Part shown: positions 1,659 through 21,074 of the stretch, one piece after another
How the letters are laid out: each line of letters begins with the position of its first letter
How positions within the stretch are numbered: position 1 is the stretch's first letter
Origin: a virus
Lineage: Duplodnaviria > Heunggongvirae > Uroviricota > Caudoviricetes
Direction: 5' to 3' (one strand)
Virus record (IMG/VR): IMGVR_UViG_2923292180_000001
Length of the DNA: 24,956 bases
Notes under the pieces: generated by a model
Databases searched by the model: none
What the model was told of the DNA's origin: nothing
The model's input: the letters and a program-made list of their open reading frames with translations, nothing else
Program-made: the position numbers and the translations under genes

Positions 1659-3692
1659 TTAAGAATCAGCCTGACTCGGGATCAGTTTTTGCCAGATAAC
1701 TGAAACGTATTTTGCCTGGTAACGGGCGTCATCAAGTGCATTATGGCGCTCACCTTCGAATGGAATAGCCGTTCTGGCATCGAAGTCTATGGCTTTCCCC
1801 AGCTCAACGATTGTGCGTACATCGCGATCGTTGTAGTAACGCCACGGGCAGGGGATCCCCTGCCGTTCGTATGAACGGCGCAAAATCGTGTTGTCGAAGT
1901 TGGCTCCATTTCCCCAAACCTGAACAAAAAATTCACCGGAGTTTTCGTCGATAAATTCTCGCAATTGTAACAGTGCATCATCTAACGGGATTTCATCGGT
2001 CATAATGGCAGATTGCGCTTCGCGTGATTGCTTAAGCCACCATTTAATGGTGTCCCGATCAATGACTCCGCCAGCAGTTTCCAGATCGATAGTCTTACTA
2101 AATTCCGGTCCCATATCTCCGGTTTGCGGATCGAAAAATATTGCACCTATTGAGATGATCGGGGCATCAGGATTTTTTCCCATGGTTTCAAGGTCGATCA
2201 TTAGATGGTCACACGTCCTGCTGGTGGATGTGATTTCGTGATGACCGTTCACCTTAATTGGGTGATCTGCCGTCTCGCCAGTTTCATTATCGCTATTGTG
2301 ATGCTGATTGCCGCCAGTGTTCTCCTTGTGTGGATGTTCAGCGCCTTCCATTTCCTCCGGATCATCTTCCTGAACTTCAACCTGATACTCTTCATCGAAT
2401 GTTTCTTGGTATGTTGCGTCGCCCATCACCGCGCCACAATCAGGGCAGTTGCCGCCGCCGGTCTGACCGCAGGCGGTGCAGACTTTTTCCACTTCCTGTT
2501 GCGCTACTGGTTCAGGCTGTTTCGTTTCTGGCTCGTTTTGTAACGCATTTGGACTGTTTTGTTCCGCTTTTTGGTAGTTCCGTTCCGATTCATGCTGGTT
2601 CTGGTTCACAGAATCGCGGGTCTGGAGCCCCTTAACCCATTTCGGATCATTCGGGTCACTAATCCCTTCAACAAATTCACCACGTGATGCAGCAAGCAAC
2701 TTATCGGCGTCAGGCTGGCTGATATTGGCTGCCTGCATAATTTTGTTTACTTCGTCAGCGGTAACTTTTATCGGCTCTGGTTGTTCTGAATCTTCAGCGG
2801 TATCTACATTTTGCGGTAAGCCCGTGTATGTGCCATTTTTTCGGGCAAAATATTCTTCTTTTGTGATTTCAGTGGCGCCAGCAGCCAGTGCCTTATCCAG
2901 ACCAGAGAGTTTGTTTGCGCGACCGTATTTTTCTCCGTCCTTATCTGCGAAGAGGAAATAGAACGGCCCCTCACGCTCTACAGATGGTTCAGCTTCCGGC
3001 GCGGTTTCATTTTTTGGGATATCAGATACCTCAGTTTCCACTGCATCAGTTTGTGTTTCTGATGACTGGAGAACATCAACAGTGCCCAGGTCTGTTTCTT
3101 CATTCTCAAACACGCCCTTTGTCGTCAGGTATTCGCAGATATATTTGTTCAGTGCTACGGGATCTTTGTGAATGTCGATCGGACGCTCACGGACAAGGCC
3201 AAAAATAGTTTGGCGGTCGTAGCGAAGGGCATCAGGCTGTTTGCGCATTGATGCCGAGATACGCTTCCAGTCTTCGCGGTCGTTGTCGATAACTTCTTTT
3301 TTTGCCCAGCGATGGATGCTGCCGTCAATGTTTCCGGCATCCACATCACTAGGCCAGAGAGCGTAGGCCAGTTCGTCATCCAGTGTTTTCCATGTCTGCT
3401 TGTATTCGCGATGAATGGCAGCAATGACCGGGCTGATTTTTCCTGTTGAATTTTCAGTGTACTGTTGATTGGCTCTGGCGCGGGCGAGATCAACAACAGA
3501 CGTGTATTTTCCGGTTTCCTTGCGTTCACCTTCGCGACGTTTTTTCCAGATGCGCATCTCTGCCTGAATTTCGGGCCATTTAGCACCAGGAATACATTTA
3601 TGCTTAACCCACCCAATGGCGTGCAACTTAAGCTCCGGATACGGGTTATTCCCCTCTGAACAGGCGCGTAAGGACTGGCAAAACGCCCGCAA
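1659..3692 (-). CDS. RecE-like (exodeoxyribonuclease VIII-like) protein with C-terminal DEDDh (DnaQ-like) 3'-5' exonuclease domain
   Basis: 677-aa ORF. C-terminal region carries Exo I (MIDLETMG), Exo II (WGNGANFDNTIL) and Exo III (HNALDDARYQ) motifs; central acidic His-rich low-complexity linker; CxxC-x8-CxxC zinc ribbon (CTACGQTGGGNCPDCG); middle segment (DKLLAASRGEFVEGISDPNDPKWVKG) resembles RecE from memory. Confidence 0.75.
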   Translation of the reverse strand: MRAFCQSLRACSEGNNPYPELKLHAIGWVKHKCIPGAKWPEIQAEMRIWKKRREGERKETGKYTSVVDLARARANQQYTENSTGKISPVIAAIHREYKQTWKTLDDELAYALWPSDVDAGNIDGSIHRWAKKEVIDNDREDWKRISASMRKQPDALRYDRQTIFGLVRERPIDIHKDPVALNKYICEYLTTKGVFENEETDLGTVDVLQSSETQTDAVETEVSDIPKNETAPEAEPSVEREGPFYFLFADKDGEKYGRANKLSGLDKALAAGATEITKEEYFARKNGTYTGLPQNVDTAEDSEQPEPIKVTADEVNKIMQAANISQPDADKLLAASRGEFVEGISDPNDPKWVKGLQTRDSVNQNQHESERNYQKAEQNSPNALQNEPETKQPEPVAQQEVEKVCTACGQTGGGNCPDCGAVMGDATYQETFDEEYQVEVQEDDPEEMEGAEHPHKENTGGNQHHNSDNETGETADHPIKVNGHHEITSTSRTCDHLMIDLETMGKNPDAPIISIGAIFFDPQTGDMGPEFSKTIDLETAGGVIDRDTIKWWLKQSREAQSAIMTDEIPLDDALLQLREFIDENSGEFFVQVWGNGANFDNTILRRSYERQGIPCPWRYYNDRDVRTIVELGKAIDFDARTAIPFEGERHNALDDARYQAKYVSVIWQKLIPSQADS

Positions 3693-3711
3693 AAAACTCT
3701 CGAGGGCAAAG

Positions 3712-3882
3712 GTGAAGAAACCTGCTGTGGTTGATCCGGACCTTATCTGGTCATCACCTGACGGAGAAATACGTCGCTACGACAGTCGCCTAAACATAAT
3801 CTGTCGCGAGTGCCGGAAGAGCGAAGTTATGCAGCGCATACTGGCTTTCTATCAGGGTAATTTTCAGGACGTGGCGCAGTGA
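3712..3882 (+). CDS. Small hypothetical protein (about 56 aa from GTG at 3712), coupled to the downstream methyltransferase remnant
   Basis: Open frame 3616..3882; GTG at 3712 is the first start that does not overlap the divergent exonuclease gene; its stop TGA (3880-3882) overlaps the GTG start of the next ORF (GTGA). Start choice uncertain. Confidence 0.3.
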   Translation: MKKPAVVDPDLIWSSPDGEIRRYDSRLNIICRECRKSEVMQRILAFYQGNFQDVAQ

Positions 3883-4325
3883 GTGCACCGGCAACCATTC
3901 TTGATATGTGCTGTGGCAGCCGCATGTTCTGGTTCGATAAGTCTGACGAACGGGCGATATTCAGCGATATCAGAAAAGAAGGATACACATTACGCAATGG
4001 GAGACGCTTGATTATCAGCCCTGACATTATCGCAGATTTTCGTGCATTATCATTTGCAGACGCATCTTTTTCGATGGTTGTATTAGACCCTCCGCATCTT
4101 GAGAGTGTTGGTGATAACGCCTGGATGGGAAAGAAATATGGACGGCTGAATAAAGATGCCTGGCGTGATGATTCGCGACAGAGATTTAAAGAAGCCTTTC
4201 GGGTGTTGAGGCCGCACGGCGTTCTGATTTTTTAATGGAATGAAACGCAAATACCGGTAAGCCAGATTCTGGCACTGACAGACAGAAAACCTGTTATCTG
4301 TCAACGAACAGGGAAAAAACGATAA
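3879..4325 (+). pseudogene. SAM-dependent DNA methyltransferase remnant (DPPH motif) broken by an in-frame TAA
   Basis: 118-aa ORF with a glycine-rich SAM-binding-like segment (LDMCCGS) and catalytic-type motif VVLDPPHL; in-frame TAA at 4233-4235 is followed by 29 further sense codons (WNETQIPVSQILALTDRKPVICQRTGKKR) ending at 4325. Confidence 0.55.
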
Positions 4326-4497
4326 AACCCACTGGATTATTTTTATGAAAGAGGCATCCAGTGAGTAGATTCGTAAGGCTACAGATACGTATATCTGAAT
4401 AATTAAATTCAGTTCTGTAAATAAAATTTAATCCTTAACCGGATGGATTTCTGCACCCTCAGAACATCAGGAGGCCGCCCGAAAGGGCGGTAGTGAA

Positions 4498-4680
4498 ATG
4501 CGAAAGTTCAAAATTATTATTGAAACGGGAATAGCTGGTGGAGATTTTGAGGATGTATTCGAAGTGGACGATGACGCAACACCTGAGGAAATTCATGACG
4601 GAGCATAAGAAATTTTCTTTAACTACTGCAATTACTCATACCACGAAATAAAAGACGATGAGGAAGAACAAAGTGGCTGA
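4498..4680 (+). pseudogene. Short ORF broken by an in-frame TAA (35 codons, TAA, 23 codons); possible decayed prophage gene
   Basis: ATG 4498; MRKFKIIIETGIAGGDFEDVFEVDDDATPEEIHDGA, TAA at 4606-4608, then EIFFNYCNYSYHEIKDDEEEQSG and TGA at 4678-4680; preceded by AGGAGG plus an 18-nt GAAA-loop hairpin. Confidence 0.3.
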
Positions 4681-4845
4681 TTTTTGTTAAGCTAAATATA
4701 ACATCAGTTTTGAAGAGCGGGATGAACTATTAATGGACTATGGTGAGTTACGCGGTGGAAGTGCTGCTGATGTCGAATCCTAGCGTGATGACTATGAAGC
4801 GGGAAAAACTCCGGTCGAAGCATATTGTGATGAGTGGGGCGATGA

Positions 4846-5133
4846 ATGAGCGAGATTAATTATCAGGAAGGGCATGAAACGGCGGGGCAAGCAAAACCAG
4901 TGGCATGGCGATATCGCTACGTGAAAAAAGGCGTTACGGACTTTCAGGGGAAGTAGTGGTCTGGTGACTGGAAATATGTACCGAAAAAAGAGGATTGTAA
5001 CGACAGGCCGAACTATCAAATTCAGGCCTTATTCACTGCCTCACCAGTCCCAGTTACATCAGAAGAACTGGTTAAAGCTGTGCACTTTTATGAACAACTA
5101 AAACGCGAAAATCCACCAACATCCGGCAACTAG
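4846..5133 (+). pseudogene. Hypothetical prophage ORF (95 codons) broken by a single in-frame amber codon
   Basis: ATG 4846; 36 sense codons (MSEINYQEGHETAGQAKPVAWRYRYVKKGVTDFQGK), TAG at 4954-4956, then 58 sense codons in the same frame (WSGDWKYVPKKEDCNDRPNYQIQALF...ENPPTSGN) to TAG at 5131-5133. Confidence 0.4.
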
Positions 5134-5387
5134 ATTAATGGATTAACTATGTCGGTTAAACGACCAGCCAACTGAAAAAGCGGAAACCTGATTACAGGTT
5201 GCCAGATAAGGCAATGAGCTACCTGGCGCGGAACGGACTGATAAGTATGGGGAATGTTTTACGATGAACCTTTAGACTAAAGAGTTTGTAACGCTATGTA
5301 AGTGATTTTTTCTGGTTTAGATATTTATATGTCCGGCCAAATTGAGGTGTGTTTAAATGTAATTGCACATTGATTGTAGGAGGAATA

Positions 5388-5567
5388 ATGAAAAACGCAT
5401 TGCAGTTTTTGTTTGTTGCGTTCTGGTTGTTCGCATCATGTATGCCCATCATCTTCACAGCAAGGTATATGGAAAAAGTTGATGTTTTGATATTAATATT
5501 TGGATATATAAATGCCCTTTTTTTAGGGGTGTTCATGGCGGTCATGTGCATTGAATACTGGCGGTAA
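5388..5567 (+). CDS. Small hydrophobic protein (59 aa, two predicted transmembrane segments) in an AT-rich islet
   Basis: ATG 5388 preceded by SD-like TAGGAGGA at 5377-5384; product MKNALQFLFVAFWLFASCMPIIFTARYMEKVDVLILIFGYINALFLGVFMAVMCIEYWR; surrounding DNA is markedly AT-rich. Confidence 0.45.
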   Translation: MKNALQFLFVAFWLFASCMPIIFTARYMEKVDVLILIFGYINALFLGVFMAVMCIEYWR

Positions 5568-5840
5568 ATACAGCGAACTCCATTGGTTTAGTTGGATATT
5601 TACTGTGCTGGACAAAAACGGTTTGCGGGGAAATCTTAGTTAAGTAGAATGACTGCGGGTGCTTGAGGCTATCTGCCTCGGGCATGGACACCAACGGCAG
5701 ATAGAGAAAAGCCCCAGTTAACATTACGCGTCCTGCAAGACGCTTAACATTAATCTGAGGCCAATTTCATGCTAGACACATGTAGGTTAGCCTCTTACGT
5801 GCCGAAAGGCACGGAGAAGCAGGCTATTGTTAACACCAAG

Positions 5841-7458
5841 CTGTAATGTCCCCTTTGAACCATTCTAAAATGTCCCCAGACAATTCTCTGGGGGATTTTT
5901 CATGATCAAAGAGACTGTTACGATGAGTCATAAGGAACTCCACCGACTTCAGATTATTCAGGAACAAGCTGCGGCACGCATTGGCATTTCTATTCGGCAG
6001 GTTAAACGTCTGGTGCAACGGTATAGAAATGAAGGGCCTTCTGGTCTGGTTTCCCACCGACGTGGAAAGCGTCCTAATAATTCCTTTTCTACTGAATTCA
6101 GAGCAACAGTAATTTCACTCCTCAAAGGCCGTTACGCTGATTTTGGACCTACGTTTGCGTGCGAAAAATTGCGCGAGATACACGGTTTATCTTTATCCGT
6201 TGAAACTCTCAGAAAGTGGATGATAGAAGAGGGGTTATGGCGTGAACGCCGTCGTAAAATTGCCCGTATATATCAACGCCGCATGCGACGACCATCTTAC
6301 GGTGAACTGATCCAGATTGATGGCTCACCTCATGACTGGTTTGAAAATCGAGGCCCCAGATGTACACTGATCGTTTTCATTGATGATGCCACCAGTGCGT
6401 TGATGGCGTTGCGTTTTGTGCCTGCTGAAACAACCCGGGCTTACATGGAAACCCTCCGGGGTTACCTTAATGATCATGGCGTACCGCTCGCTCTCTACTC
6501 TGATAGACACAGTATATTCAGGGTAAATAACCCAGAGCGGGAAGGTGAGCTGACCCAGTTCACTCGTGCGATAAAGACACTGGGCATCGAGCCAATCCAT
6601 GCCAACAGCCCGCAGGCAAAAGGGCGGGTAGAGCGCGCCAATCAGACACTACAGGACAGGCTGGTCAAAGAAATGCGGCTTCAGAATATCAGTGATATTG
6701 AAACAGCAAATGCATGGTTGCCGACCTTTATTGAAGCCTATAACAACCGGTTCGCTACGTCGCCTCGTACTACTGATAATGCTCATCTTGATGTGCACCA
6801 TTCTGAAGAGGAACTGGGTTATATCTTCAGCCTACAGGCGAAGCGCGTTCTGTCTAAAAATCTCACTTTCCAGTACAAAAGCAGTGCGTTTCAGGTACGC
6901 AGTGAGGGCCGGGGATATCGACTTAGGCATTCGGTTGTTACTGTATGCGAGAACTTTGACGGTGAAATTAACGTTCTGTATGACGGGAAAGCGCTGGGCT
7001 GGGAAAAGTATGTTGATGGCCCGGAGCCTATACCACTGGATGATGAAAAGAGTGTCCATGAACGAGTGGATAATGCCCGTATTGATTTACGCTCAAAATA
7101 CTATGTTAAACCTAAAGCTGACCATCCCTGGCTTACGCGCCGAACGCAAAGTCATCAGCAAGTTAAGCCCCCGAAGTTACCTAAAAAGAAGCCTGATCCC
7201 GATAAAAAAGATTGAAACCAAGATCGATTCGGTTGAGTGCATATCCATTCATAGGGTAGATTCTTAAGTCGCGTTTCTGGTGTTCATTTTCGGGTGGTTT
7301 GTTACTTGTTTTACCGGGGATATGCCAGAAACGCGCTGAGTCAGTCTGGGCGGTGCGCGTAATGAGGCGTTATGGTAAATAGCCTATGCTAATGTCCGCT
7401 AAGAGCAAGAAGCGGAAGTTGGCAGTTTTGTGGACTGTCCCCACAAAAGTGACTACAG
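5841..7458 (+). mobile_element. Insertion sequence carrying the ISNCY-like transposase; boundaries approximate
   Basis: Single transposase ORF flanked by non-coding arms with short palindromes (CCCCAGA..TCTGGGG near 5875-5893; TTTGTGG..CCACAAA near 7427-7449). No convincing terminal inverted repeats or target duplication could be defined by eye. Confidence 0.3.
5902..7215 (+). CDS. DDE (rve-type) transposase, ISNCY/IS1202-like
   Basis: 437-aa ORF with N-terminal helix-turn-helix (ISIRQVKRLVQRY) and integrase-core signature (..DGSPHDWF.., ..YSDRHSIF.., ..SPQAKGRVERANQTLQD..). Family assignment is from memory. Confidence 0.75.
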   Translation: MIKETVTMSHKELHRLQIIQEQAAARIGISIRQVKRLVQRYRNEGPSGLVSHRRGKRPNNSFSTEFRATVISLLKGRYADFGPTFACEKLREIHGLSLSVETLRKWMIEEGLWRERRRKIARIYQRRMRRPSYGELIQIDGSPHDWFENRGPRCTLIVFIDDATSALMALRFVPAETTRAYMETLRGYLNDHGVPLALYSDRHSIFRVNNPEREGELTQFTRAIKTLGIEPIHANSPQAKGRVERANQTLQDRLVKEMRLQNISDIETANAWLPTFIEAYNNRFATSPRTTDNAHLDVHHSEEELGYIFSLQAKRVLSKNLTFQYKSSAFQVRSEGRGYRLRHSVVTVCENFDGEINVLYDGKALGWEKYVDGPEPIPLDDEKSVHERVDNARIDLRSKYYVKPKADHPWLTRRTQSHQQVKPPKLPKKKPDPDKKD

Positions 7459-15359: not shown

Positions 15360-15721
15360 GGTAATATTAAATCGGAACATTTACATCGCGGAATGTAAAA
15401 TTTAAATAAAAAGGACTCTTCCATGAGCCAAAATTCCTGAAATCTTAAGGGTAAGATAAAAGGTCTTAATCAGAATGACACGTTTTATTAATAAATAAAG
15501 CCATTCTTTCATTGCTGTGTTTTTCTTTACAAAAGTAATCCTTGCTATGGGTGGTTAATCATGCGTTAATGGTGTTCTGGTTTGTTACAAATTTATCTGA
15601 AGCAGTCATTGTTATAATTTTATTATTTGTACCTCTTGAGATTTCCTTGTTGGTTTTTCTCTCTGATATTTTTTTTCGGACCATTCTGCCCAAGGGCTAA
15701 TTTCTTCAAAAGGTAATAATT

Positions 15722-15934
15722 ATGTCTAACAAAATGACTGGTTTAGTGAAATGGTTTAACCCTGAAAAAGGTTTTGGTTTCATCACGCCGAAAGATGGCA
15801 GCAAAGATGTGTTTGTCCATTTCTCAGCAATTCAGAGCAACGATTTCAAAACATTAACTGAGAATCAGGAAGTTGAATTTGGTATTGAGAACGGACCTAA
15901 AGGTCCTGCCGCTGTTCATGTAGTGGCGCTTTGA
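15722..15934 (+). CDS. cspI: Cold-shock protein CspI
   Basis: 70-aa product [70 protein letters not shown]; long AT-rich leader upstream. Confidence 0.95.
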
Positions 15935-16138
15935 GGTAGACAATATTACAAACCATATTCACTTTAGATGCCCGTGTTGTCATGGTTCCCAGTATAGAAC
16001 ATCATCTTTTGATGTTTCTGACATGAATCCTTTCGGGGCAAAATGTATCTTTTGTAAATCAATGATGATTACATTTGATAATATTTCACAATACTTAAAT
16101 GCCAGCCGTCTGTCGTTGGATTTAAAAAAGTGAAAATG

Positions 16139-16162
16139 AAGGCTCCTTCGGGAGCTTTTTTG
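16139..16162 (+). terminator. Rho-independent terminator downstream of the cspI region
   Basis: AAGGCTCC-TTCG-GGAGCTTTTTTGC; placed 6 bp after the stop (16131-16133) of a zinc-ribbon reading frame. Confidence 0.55.
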
Positions 16163-16205
16163 CTTGGTGTCTATTCGATGGATACTCACATACTACGGTA
16201 ACATC

Positions 16206-16436
16206 ATGAAAAAAATCATAGTTTTTTTTAACTCTGAACCAGCAGTGGTAGTGCCAGCGATGACTGGAGTTAACACCATCATGCGTGAATATCCAAATGG
16301 CGAAAAAACACACCTTACTGTAATGGCCGCAGGGTTTCCATCTCTGACCGGAGATCATAAAGTCATTTATGTAGCCGCGGATCGACATGTTACTTCAGAA
16401 GAAATTCTGGAAGCAGCAATAAGGCTCTTGAGTTGA
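16206..16436 (+). CDS. Hypothetical 76-aa protein
   Basis: ATG 16206 (ORF-track frame opens at 16164); product MKKIIVFFNSEPAVVVPAMTGVNTIMREYPNGEKTHLTVMAAGFPSLTGDHKVIYVAADRHVTSEEILEAAIRLLS; no recognisable domain. Confidence 0.4.
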   Translation: MKKIIVFFNSEPAVVVPAMTGVNTIMREYPNGEKTHLTVMAAGFPSLTGDHKVIYVAADRHVTSEEILEAAIRLLS

Positions 16437-16579
16437 TTTGATGCTATTGCATTGATAATTCAGGAAAATTCTCTTTGTCTGTTTGTGTAAAATTTAGACT
16501 ATCGTATGTTGATTATTGCGATGTTTCATCTTATCTTTTACACGTTTGCTGATCCTACCCACGTAATATGGACACAGGC

Positions 16580-17446
16580 CTAAGCGAGGTTCTTGTTTTC
16601 AAATTGTTCCGGACTGAGGCCGCCACACCAACTGTGCCGCCGCCACCGATTGTAATCACATTCGATATAATTAAACACCGTTGCCCGCATTATTTCCCGG
16701 CTGATAAAGTGTTCTCCATGGATACATTCCACTTTCAGCGAATGAAAGAAGCTTTCCACGCAGGCATTATCGTAGCAGCAACCTTTTGCGCTCATACTTC
16801 CACGCAGATTATGCCGCTTCAGTTGCGCCTGATAATCTGCTGAACAGTACTGGCCTCCACGGTCCGTGTGAACGATAACGTTCCGGGGCCTCTTACGCCG
16901 CCACAGCGCCATCTGCAGGGCATCGCAGGCCAGTTGCGCCGTCATGCGTGGCGACATTGACCAGCCAATAACGGCACGTGACCACAGGTCAATGACCACT
17001 GCCAGATACAGCCAGCCTTCATCTGTACGTAAGTACGTGATGTCTCCTGCCCACTTCTGGTTCGGGCCACTGGCGTAAAAATCCTGCTCCAACAGATTTT
17101 CTGACACAGGCAGGCCGTGTGCGCGGTAGCTGACCGGGCTGAACTTCCGGGAGGCCTTTGCCCTCAGTCCCTGACGGCGCAGGCTTGCCGCCACGGTTTT
17201 TACGTTAAAGGGGTAACCCTGAGCACGCAGTTCATCCGTCAGGCGTGGGGCACCGTAACGCTGTTTTGACCGGGTAAAAGCCGCGAGGACAACGCTGTCG
17301 CAGTGTTGGCGGAACTGCTGACGCGTGCTTATCCTTGTCCGCCGCTGACACCACGTATACCAGCCGCTGCGGGCCACCCGGAGCACGCGGCACATTGCTT
17401 TGATGCTGAACTCAGCCTGATGTTTTTCAATAAAGACATACTTCAT
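16580..17446 (-). CDS. insF: IS3 transposase OrfB (InsF), DDE catalytic domain
   Basis: 288-aa product [38 protein letters not shown]... recognised as IS3 InsF; overlaps the orfA stop (ATGA), as in the frameshift-fused IS3 arrangement. Confidence 0.9.
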
Positions 17447-17751
17447 TTCAGGCGCTTCGCGAAGTATGTCGCGGCCTTTTGGAGGATAGCCAGCTCTTCA
17501 TCCCGTTCTGCCAGCTGGCGTTTGAGACGTGCAATCTCGGTAGACATCTCCAGTTCACGTTCAGAAGACGTCTGCTGATTTTGCTGTTTACTGCGCCAGT
17601 TGTAGAGTTGTGATTCATACAGGCTGAGTTCACGGGCTGCGGCAGTAACACCGATGCGTTCAGCAAGCTTCAGGGCTTCACTGCGAAATTCAGGCGAATG
17701 CTGTTTACGGGGTTTTTTACTGGTTGATACTGTTTTTGTCATGTGAGTCAC
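17443..17751 (-). CDS. insE: IS3 transposase OrfA (InsE), helix-turn-helix / leucine zipper
   Basis: 102-aa [58 protein letters not shown]... recognised as IS3 InsE. Confidence 0.9.
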
Positions 17752-17868
17752 CTCTGACTGAGAGTTTACTCACTTAGCCGCGTGTCCACTATTGCTGGGT
17801 AAGATCATGCACCATATAATCGACTTACTGTGTAACTGGAAAGTCATAACAGACTAAAAGAGGAAATG

Positions 17869-18042
17869 ATGAATATTGAAAACTTAAAAACAAAAGCAGA
17901 AGCAGATATTTCTGAATATATAACAAAAAAAATTATTGAACTTAAGAAAAAGACCGGGAAAGAAGTTACCAGTATTCAGTTTACCGCACGGGAAAAAATG
18001 ACGGGTCTTGAAAGCTATGATGTCAAGATTAATTTAATCTGA
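17869..18042 (+). CDS. gnsB: GnsB-like small protein (57 aa); below the ORF-track size cutoff
   Basis: ATG 17869 with upstream AAGAGGAAA; product MNIENLKTKAEADISEYITKKIIELKKKTGKEVTSIQFTAREKMTGLESYDVKINLI matches the GnsA/GnsB family pattern. Confidence 0.8.
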   Translation: MNIENLKTKAEADISEYITKKIIELKKKTGKEVTSIQFTAREKMTGLESYDVKINLI

Positions 18043-18159
18043 TGTATTCAATAATAAAATTTATCCATAAACCTCGTTTTTACGGGGTTTTGTTATATTT
18101 GAATGGTTCCGAATATCTAAATCACAATTGTTGATGGTTTTTATTAAACCAATGCAGTC

Positions 18160-18193
18160 CGGCTCAGGAGTGAGAGAAGCCGGACGTTATGGT
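18160..18193 (-). terminator. Terminator downstream of ydfO
   Basis: GTCCGGCT...AGCCGGAC hairpin immediately after the ydfO stop (18194), followed on the minus strand by an A/T-rich tract. Confidence 0.45.
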
Positions 18194-19029: not shown

Positions 19030-19283
19030 TTGTGATATGTAGATGATAATCATTATCACTTTACGGGTCCTTTCCGGTGATCCGACAGGTTACGGGGCGG
19101 CGACCTCGCGGGTTTTCGCTATTTATGAAAATTTTCCGGTTTAAGGTGTTTCCGTTCTTCTTCGTCGTAACTTAATGTTTTTATTTAAAATACCCCCTGA
19201 AAAGAAAGGAAACGACAGGTGCTGAAAGCGGGCTTTTTGGCCTTTGTCGTTTCCTTTCTCTGTTTTTGTCCGTGGAATGAACA
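19030..19283 (+). other. Lambda-type cos site (cosQ-cosN-cosB); cosN 12-nt cohesive-end sequence at 19095-19106
   Basis: ...TGATATGTAGATGATAATCATTATCACTTTACGGGTCCTTTCCGGTGATCCGACAGGTTACG | GGGCGGCGACCT CGCGGGTTTTCGCTATTTATGAAAATTTTCCGGTTTAAGG... is essentially the joined right and left ends of phage lambda; the nu1 ATG follows 189 bp after cosN. Confidence 0.85.
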
Positions 19284-19541
19284 ATGGAAGTCAACAAAAA
19301 GCAGCTGGCTGACATTTTCGGTGCGAGTATCCGTACCATTCAGAACTGGCAGGAACAGGGAATGCCCGTTCTGCGAGGCGGTGGCAAGGGTAATGAGGTG
19401 CTTTATGATTCTGCCGCCGTCATAAAATGGTATGCCGAAAGGGATGCTGAAATTGAGAACGAAAAGCTGCGCCGGGAAGTTGAAGAACTGCGGCAGGCCA
19501 GCGAGACAGATCTCCAGCCACCCGCGCTACGGCATGGGTAA
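19284..19541 (+). pseudogene. nohA: Terminase small subunit Nu1 N-terminal fragment (homology ends near 19520)
   Basis: MEVNKKQLADIFGASIRTIQNWQEQGMPVLRGGGKGNEVLYDSAAVIKWYAERDAEIENEKLRREVEELRQASE is the lambda Nu1 N-terminus; after about codon 79 the sequence departs from nu1 and continues as a J fragment in another frame. Confidence 0.85.
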
Positions 19542-20799
19542 ACGTCTTGGTGCGGCAGATGTGGATAAATGGGCGCTGTATGTCATCGGCCAGTGTTGCG
19601 ACCAGTCGGTGCCGGACGGTTTTGGCGGCACGGAGCCGCGCATCACCTGTAATGCCTGGCTGACCACACAGCGTAAGGCGTGGGATGTTCTCAGTGATTT
19701 CTGCTCGGCGATGCGCTGTATGCCGGTATGGAACGGGCAGACGCTGACGTTCGTGCAGGACCGACCATCAGATAAGGTGTGGACCTATAACCGCAGTAAT
19801 GTGGTGATGCCGGATGATGGCGCGCCGTTCCGCTACAGCTTCAGCGCCCTGAAGGACCGCCATAATGACGTTGAGGTGAACTGGATTGACCCGGATAACG
19901 GCTGGGAGACGGCGACAGAGCTTGTGGAGGACACGCAGGCCATTGCCCGTTACGGTCGTAACGTCACGAAGATGGATGCCTTTGGCTGTACCAGGCGGGG
20001 GCAGGCGCACCGAGCCGGGCTGTGGCTGATTAAAACGGAACTGCTGGAAACGCAGACCGTGGACTTCAGCGTGGGTGCCGAAGGGCTTCGCCATGTACCA
20101 GGTGATGTCATTGAAATCTGTGATGATGACTATGCGGGGATCAGCATCGGCGGGCGCGTGCTGGCGGTGAACAGCCAGACGCGGACACTGACGCTCGACC
20201 GTGAAATCACGCTGCCATCCTCCGGCACCACGCTGATAAGCCTGGTTGACGGGCAGGGTAATCCGGTGAGCGTGGAGGTCCAGTCCGTCACCGACGGCGT
20301 GAAGGTGAAAGTGAGCCGGGTTCCTGACGGCGTTGCCGAGTACAGCGTGTGGGGGCTGAAGCTGCCGACGCTGCGTCAGCGCCTGTTCCGCTGTGTGAGT
20401 ATCCGTGAGAACGATGACGGTACGTATGCCATCACTGCCGTGCAGCATGTACCGGAGAAAGAAGCCATCGTGGATAACGGGGCGCACTTTGACGGTGACC
20501 AGAGCGGCACGGTGAATGGTGTCACGCCGCCAGCAGTTCAGCACCTGACCGCAGAAGTCACCGCAGACAGCGGGGAATACCAGGTGCTGGCGCGCTGGGA
20601 CACGCCGAAGGTGGTGAAGGGGGTGAGCTTTATGCTTCGCCTGACCGTGGCAGCGGACGACGGCAGTGAGCGGTTGGTCAGCACGGCCCGGACGACGGAA
20701 ACCACATATCGCTTCACGCAGCTGGCGCTGGGAAATTACAGGCTGACAGTCCGGGCGGTAAATGCATGGGGACAGCCGGTGCACATACCCATTCGATGA
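19521..20799 (+). pseudogene. Internal fragment of tail tip/host-specificity protein J (about 420 codons), no native start
   Basis: The 455-aa ORF (19432..20799) reads ..PRYGMGKRLGAADVDKWALYVIGQCCDQSVPDGFGGTEPRITCNAW...[12 protein letters not shown], collinear with the central part of lambda J; it begins exactly where nu1 homology stops and ends at a second junction with stf. Confidence 0.85.
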
Positions 20800-21074
20800 C
20801 ATTTGTTTCAGGTGGTTCCAGTGGTGCTCCGGGAAGTGGATCACCTGATTATTCTAAATACAGTGTTAACACTTCTTCTGCAGGCGCTCATACGCACTCT
20901 GTATCGGGTACTGCTGCAAGCGCAGGTGCACACGCATATACTGTCGGTATTGGTGCTCATACGCACTCCGTTGCGATTGGTTCACATGGACATACCATCA
21001 CCGTTAACGCTGCTGGTAACGCGGAAAACACCGTCAAAAACATCGCATTTAACTATATTGTGAGGCTTGCGTAA
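20766..21074 (+). CDS. stfQ: Side tail fibre (Stf) C-terminal fragment, 102 aa, with HxH repeat motifs
   Basis: ..[63 protein letters not shown] matches the lambda Stf C-terminus; the ATG at 20766 lies in J-derived sequence; stop overlaps the tfa start (TAATG). Confidence 0.75.

Follow-up and report, generated by a model that had tools for sequence, protein, structure and literature searches.

The window, i.e., the whole stretch of 24,956 nt analysed here, is a Qin-type cryptic prophage, in which the genes follow from the integrase through relBE, hokD, ydfU and the Q antiterminator to cspF/cspB and the lysis genes, continue with the row cspI-ymcF-ynfR-ynfN-gnsB, and then pass into ydfO, ynfO, the tail remnants, pinQ, ydfK and a ydfJ fragment. 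According to the annotation transferred from identical sequence, the prophage is heavily decayed (1659-6945 and 19280-21070), the decayed genes being represented by a truncated exonuclease, the DUF977 and DUF7167 pseudogenes, a partial ISNCY transposase and truncated genes for the terminase, TipJ and the tail fibre; relBE, hokD, cspB/F/I, pinQ and the lysis genes are intact. Within this prophage, the genes ynfN (16206-16436, plus strand) and gnsB (17869-18042, plus strand), both placed by the RefSeq annotation of identical sequence, are split from each other by a copy of the insertion sequence IS3. The gene model of ynfN varies between 231 nt (76 aa) in the PGAP genomes and 156 nt in NC_000913.3 (b1551, 1637954-1638109). 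No Pfam or NCBIfam match was obtained for YnfN, and the possibility that it corresponds to YmcE, which is reported as a partner of GnsA and is encoded at the same position upstream of gnsA, was rejected in view of no detectable similarity. GnsB, with 57 aa as annotated, matches the Pfam family PF08178 (GnsAB_toxin; E = 3.3e-35) and is 67% identical to GnsA. The gene begins with a tandem in-frame ATG ATG (17866-17871), the mechanical ORF of 58 aa starting from 17866 and the RefSeq protein of 57 aa from the second codon. The overexpression of gnsA or gnsB was reported to raise unsaturated fatty acids and to suppress fabA6(Ts) and secG-null cold sensitivity (Sugai et al. 2001, as described in the papers citing that work).

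At the gnsA locus, ymcE overlaps gnsA, whereas here, the insertion apart, a spacer of 171 nt lies between ynfN and gnsB. A terminator scan found, beyond the 3' end of gnsB, a hairpin that resembles an intrinsic terminator and has a T-run after it (18069-18090, plus strand), which was the only terminator-like site of the plus strand from cspI to ydfO, with none from cspI to gnsB. Because no terminator is predicted between cspI and gnsB, the scan suggests that cspI-ymcF-ynfR-ynfN-gnsB could form one transcription unit.

The insertion is a complete IS3 of 1258 bp on the minus strand (16550-17807), and this block of the window begins TGATCCTACCCA and finishes TGGGTAAGATCA. The element is identical at 1258 of 1258 positions to the annotated copies in NZ_AP045777.1 and NZ_AP031375.1 (strains 23CRST021 and 160-11H1), both labelled in RefSeq as 'IS3-like element IS3 family transposase' with a 'programmed frameshift' and with the transposase WP_085947771.1; five further IS3 copies that were compared are either identical to it or differ by one base, and identity extends to the copies in the comparison loci L003, L005, L006 and L007. 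No second copy of IS3 was found within the window. The terminal inverted repeats located by a repeat finder are 39 nt long and imperfect, with 72% complementarity, and both start with TGATC (TGATC at one end, GATCA at the other). On the minus strand of the element, the right repeat IRR (16550-16588), at the orfB-distal end, is turned toward ynfN, and the left repeat IRL (17769-17807), upstream of orfA, is turned toward gnsB, with the ATG of orfA at IS position 66. The ORF list together with Pfam gave, also on the minus strand, orfA (17443-17742, with the ATG at 17742), which encodes 99 aa with the HTH_Tnp_1 domain, and orfB (16580-17446), which as a free-standing ORF encodes 288 aa with HTH_21 and rve, the DDE integrase core. 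The slippery site A-AAA-G (17476-17480, minus strand; AAAAG at IS positions 328-332), located in the overlap of orfA and orfB, is the candidate for the programmed -1 frameshift joining OrfA and OrfB, in agreement with the RefSeq label on the identical copies. By conceptual translation, a -1 shift at this site yields an uninterrupted OrfAB of 387 aa, which scores 392.7 bits against the NCBIfam model NF033516 'IS3 family transposase' (cut-off 160) and has Pfam matches to HTH_Tnp_1, HTH_21, rve and rve_2.

Both the imperfect terminal inverted repeats ending 5'-TG...CA-3' and the predicted arrangement of overlapping orfA (HTH) and orfB (DDE/rve core) with a motif of the A-AAA-G type are thus those that define the IS3 family. 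As far as it can be read from the nucleotides, the element is IS3 itself and intact, with every sequence-readable defining feature of IS3 and of its family present, and this copy is presumably transposition-competent. The first-pass annotation had named the element IS3 and had described terminal inverted repeats at both ends, with identical TGC triplets flanking them; the full-length identity and the family match of OrfAB bear out the former, and the 39-nt repeats with TGC on each side the latter.

The two TGC triplets, at 16547-16549 on the left and 17808-17810 on the right, were recognized by direct reading and were assessed against the uninterrupted sites of other genomes. The comparison of the whole window with many E. 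coli chromosomes gave approximately 100% identity at 95% coverage in two pieces, with a span in the matching record of 23,695 nt, which equals 24,956 - 1,258 - 3. The empty site was reconstructed by the removal of 16550-17810 (IS3 and one TGC), and the resulting 23,695 nt were compared base by base with strain EC24 (NZ_CM169477.1, 2265531-2289225): the two sequences are of equal length and colinear throughout, with 3 mismatches in the 23,695 nt. In EC24, the empty site reads ...acacgtttgc|accatataatcg and carries a single TGC. An empty-site construct of 600 nt was found in one piece at 600/600 in MG1655, C600, ATCC 8739 and many other strains, and at least 80% of it was covered in one place by 2,121 genomes; the target TGC of MG1655, likewise single, lies at 1637843-1637841 on the minus strand of NC_000913.3. 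In a control comparison, five further IS3 copies of independent origin carry 3-bp duplications of their own (GTC, AAA, AAT, ACT and TGG), and two rearranged copies with altered neighbourhoods, those of strains HUE1 (L004) and A10 (L007), have no matching flanks. Since the contiguous empty sites contain a single TGC, the TGC pair is, on the evidence of these alignments, a genuine 3-bp target-site duplication left by a simple insertion, and the flanks are unrearranged. The three single-base differences from EC24 (window 13743, 19868 and 23777), the only ones over 23.7 kb with IS3 removed, indicate that the source strain is a very close relative of EC24-like isolates.

A comparison with strains lacking the insertion had been proposed in the first-pass annotation, and the contiguous flanks with exactly one TGC in EC24 and MG1655 now supply it; the accompanying view of a simple insertion with no later rearrangement agrees with the colinearity to EC24 and with about 2,100 uninterrupted sites. 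The placement of the insertion in the intergenic region before gnsB, 58 nt from the gene, was also right, as counted with TGC to the first ATG at 17866, the distance to the RefSeq-annotated start at 17869 being 61 nt.

Accordingly, the presence of the element is almost certainly explained by ordinary DDE transposition of an intact IS3 into the interval between ynfN and gnsB of a Qin-type cryptic prophage, in the course of which a staggered 3-bp cut at TGC would have been repaired into the direct duplication, with no rearrangement since. An arrival in which two IS3 copies recombined, an adjacent deletion took place or a composite element carried IS3 in, with the TGC match being coincidental (about 1 in 64), would have its precedents in the non-simple IS3 copies that occur nearby in HUE1 and A10, with unmatched flanks and altered neighbours. 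However, the flanks of the present copy are contiguous, with exactly one TGC, in EC24, MG1655 and about 2,100 other genomes, and the 25-kb window is otherwise colinear with EC24 and contains no second IS3, so that the rearrangement or composite-element reading was rejected on the colinearity and on the lone IS3 copy and is regarded as extremely improbable.

The occupied junction, queried on each side as 150 nt of flank joined to 150 nt of IS, had no single-piece match in 5,426 complete RefSeq E. coli genomes, in searches that detect IS3 only if it is oriented as it is here; only two-piece matches were returned, which correspond to IS3 at other nearby positions. A 31-mer across the right junction was likewise absent, by exact match, from the GTDB representative genomes and the JGI metagenome contigs. 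This absence from all three collections is what might be expected of an assembly artefact, i.e., of a repeat misplaced by the assembler, but a misplaced repeat would not yield a precise 3-bp target duplication with perfectly contiguous flanks, and IS3 commonly occupies strain-specific sites, of which at least six further distinct ones are seen inside or close to this prophage among other strains; an artefact is hence considered very unlikely. Judged from the junction searches, the transposition event is strain- or lineage-specific, and it is presumably recent, given an IS copy that does not differ from others and flanks that are almost the same as in EC24. The insertion site is the only new fact in this respect, the element itself being well known.

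Insertions in the same part of the prophage are found in other strains, where independent IS3 copies occupy at least five positions within about 2 kb, including sites inside ynfN, in the gnsB-ydfO interval and upstream of cspI. Expressed in window-equivalent positions (loci L003-L009 compared with 15700-18160), these sites are at ~15699, 16288-16290, ~16305, 16337 and ~18157, their number being a lower bound. IS1 has entered at ~18032-18044, at or after the 3' end of gnsB, in two events of opposite orientations in other strains, and IS5 follows gnsB in strain A10. In strain 23CRST024 (NZ_AP045783.1; L005, locus 1-2150), two identical and directly oriented IS3 copies enclose cspI-ymcF-ynfR together with the 5' portion of ynfN, a layout that resembles a composite transposon around the cold-shock gene cluster. 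The GC content of the cspI-ydfO stretch is 36-37% vs 53.6% in IS3. The stretch may be either often hit or freely tolerant of insertions, i.e., a regional hot spot or tolerant A/T-rich DNA of a dead prophage.

The element is antisense to the row cspI-ymcF-ynfR-ynfN-gnsB, with the transcription of its transposase heading away from gnsB. It is IRL, the end with the transposase promoter, that adjoins gnsB, which does not support the first-pass description of an outward end pointing toward gnsB. The two promoters of IS3, P3L and P3R, share one direction, and the outward one is P3R, as stated by Kanai et al. 2022 (PMC8860574) with reference to Charlier et al. 1982. From its name and from its being outward in the direction of the transposase, we infer that P3R is located at the right end of IS3; it would then leave the element through IRR at 16550, antisense into ynfN and away from gnsB. 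A consensus scan revealed a sigma-70-like TGGAGA-18-AATAAT in the 3' part of orfB (16689-16718, minus strand), which reads out through IRR toward ynfN and may be the published P3R. Fuqua and Wagner 2025 (PMC12095673) selected the 150-bp ends of IS3 because promoter activity could not be detected in them by themselves; in their study, a promoter emerged on the outward strand of the left end, 3L(-), once a -10 box arose downstream of the -35 boxes already there.

The sequence between the insertion and gnsB contains, by direct reading and a hexamer scan, a native TATAAT (17815-17820, plus strand), located 4 bp beyond the right TGC, with the annotated ATG 49 nt further downstream; this hexamer is a candidate -10 box of gnsB and is kept in strains HUE1, H2 and A10, whose alleles are ~91% identical. 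At the -35 position, with an equal 17-bp spacing to TATAAT, the empty site has TTATCT vs TTGCTG in the occupied one. The latter hexamer (17792-17797, plus strand) lies in IRL, reads outward and, by consensus in the hexamer scan, is -35-like and a candidate half of a hybrid promoter. The consensus matches amount to 9 of 12 in both the occupied and the empty site, with 3+6 for TTGCTG-TATAAT; the stricter scan, with at least 4 of 6 matches required per hexamer, returned no plus-strand promoter upstream of gnsB in either state. Other candidate promoters upstream have been shifted by IS3 1.26 kb away from gnsB. No promoter, transcription-start or expression data for gnsB were found in the literature searched, nor was there a gnsB entry in the Cappable-seq, SMRT-Cappable-seq and Conway 2014 operon supplements as far as these were obtainable. 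The gnsA paralogue is uninformative on the conservation of the promoter, its homology starting no more than about 15 nt ahead of the ATG, with ymcE overlapping gnsA.

If TATAAT is the -10 box of gnsB, IS3 sits in the promoter spacer, and the -35 element would have been replaced by an equivalent or, because the TTG is retained in TTGCTG, slightly better one. With TATAAT kept and TTGCTG in place of TTATCT, a weak hybrid promoter that matches the consensus about as well would probably persist, while gnsB would be cut off from everything upstream of -58, including the read-through from cspI/ynfN and the A/T-rich DNA upstream of the putative promoter. Since 1.26 kb of antisense IS3 is interposed and no terminator is predicted from cspI to gnsB, any co-transcription with the cold-shock genes would be disrupted; P3R, for its part, would fire antisense into ynfN and not into gnsB. 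An effect on gnsB expression is plausible from these features, and the more general part of the first-pass claim, that IS3 could alter gnsB expression, may still hold by way of the replacement of the -35 hexamer and the interruption of upstream transcription, not by the route through an outward end. This effect is likely to be near-neutral or to consist in a modest reduction or an uncoupling from the upstream control. A change toward reduction or uncoupling is more likely than activation, and in a decaying prophage the insertion is probably close to neutral.

An activation of gnsB by IS3 would require that the left end supplies a better -35 element, TTGCTG with its highly conserved TTG, and so gives rise to a raised or constitutive hybrid promoter. 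The geometry of the hexamers fits, at 17 bp from the genomic TATAAT, and hybrid promoters composed of IS and genomic halves have been documented, the outward -35 boxes of the IS3 left end being functional once a -10 box is present (PMC12095673). Nevertheless, the equal consensus score of the native and hybrid pairs predicts no clear gain, the IS takes away from gnsB the A/T-rich DNA ahead of it and whatever promoters lie upstream, and TTGCTG may not be among the -35 boxes of PMC12095673; activation is therefore held to be unlikely, though still conceivable. A wider proposition would hold that IS3 has landed between the real -35 and -10 elements of gnsB, that the cold-shock unit is cut, gnsB is driven by a constitutive hybrid promoter and P3R runs antisense to ynfN, and that the nearby IS3, IS1 and IS5 insertions reflect selection on gnsB/ynfN expression and not tolerance; taken as a whole, this is a distinctly doubtful proposition. 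The significance of this clean, recent and strain-specific event goes little beyond strain typing, in which it might serve as a lineage marker. If the expression of gnsB were altered, slight shifts in membrane lipid unsaturation or in cold adaptation might follow; gnsB, however, is not essential, belongs to a cryptic prophage and has a paralogue on the chromosome, gnsA. The site also presents a natural test of whether the left end of IS3 can substitute for a -35 element.

In comparison with the type element of the IS3 group, E. coli IS3, the copy described here has the same length of 1258 bp, the same sequence, TGATC ends and A-AAA-G overlap, and the same 3-bp duplication; it differs from the E. 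coli copies only in the insertion site, the ynfN/gnsB junction having been found in none of the 5,426 complete E. coli genomes from RefSeq. The insertion resembles those known elsewhere in the cspI-ydfO stretch of Qin-type prophages, such as IS3 in ynfN (23CRST024 and H2) and between gnsB and ydfO (2013C-4991 and its relatives), and it follows the same 3-bp rule; unlike it, each of those is at a different nucleotide, and the TGC at 58 nt from gnsB is not the target in any of them. With the IS3 'mobile promoter' of Charlier, Piette and Glansdorff 1982, as it is cited in PMC8860574, the locus shares an IS3 end immediately upstream of a gene, but, in contrast to that system as presented there, the left end faces gnsB, and P3R, presumably at the right end, would point away from it. 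It likewise resembles in layout the IS-derived hybrid promoters, in that a putative genomic -10-like hexamer is correctly spaced from a -35-like hexamer borne by the IS.
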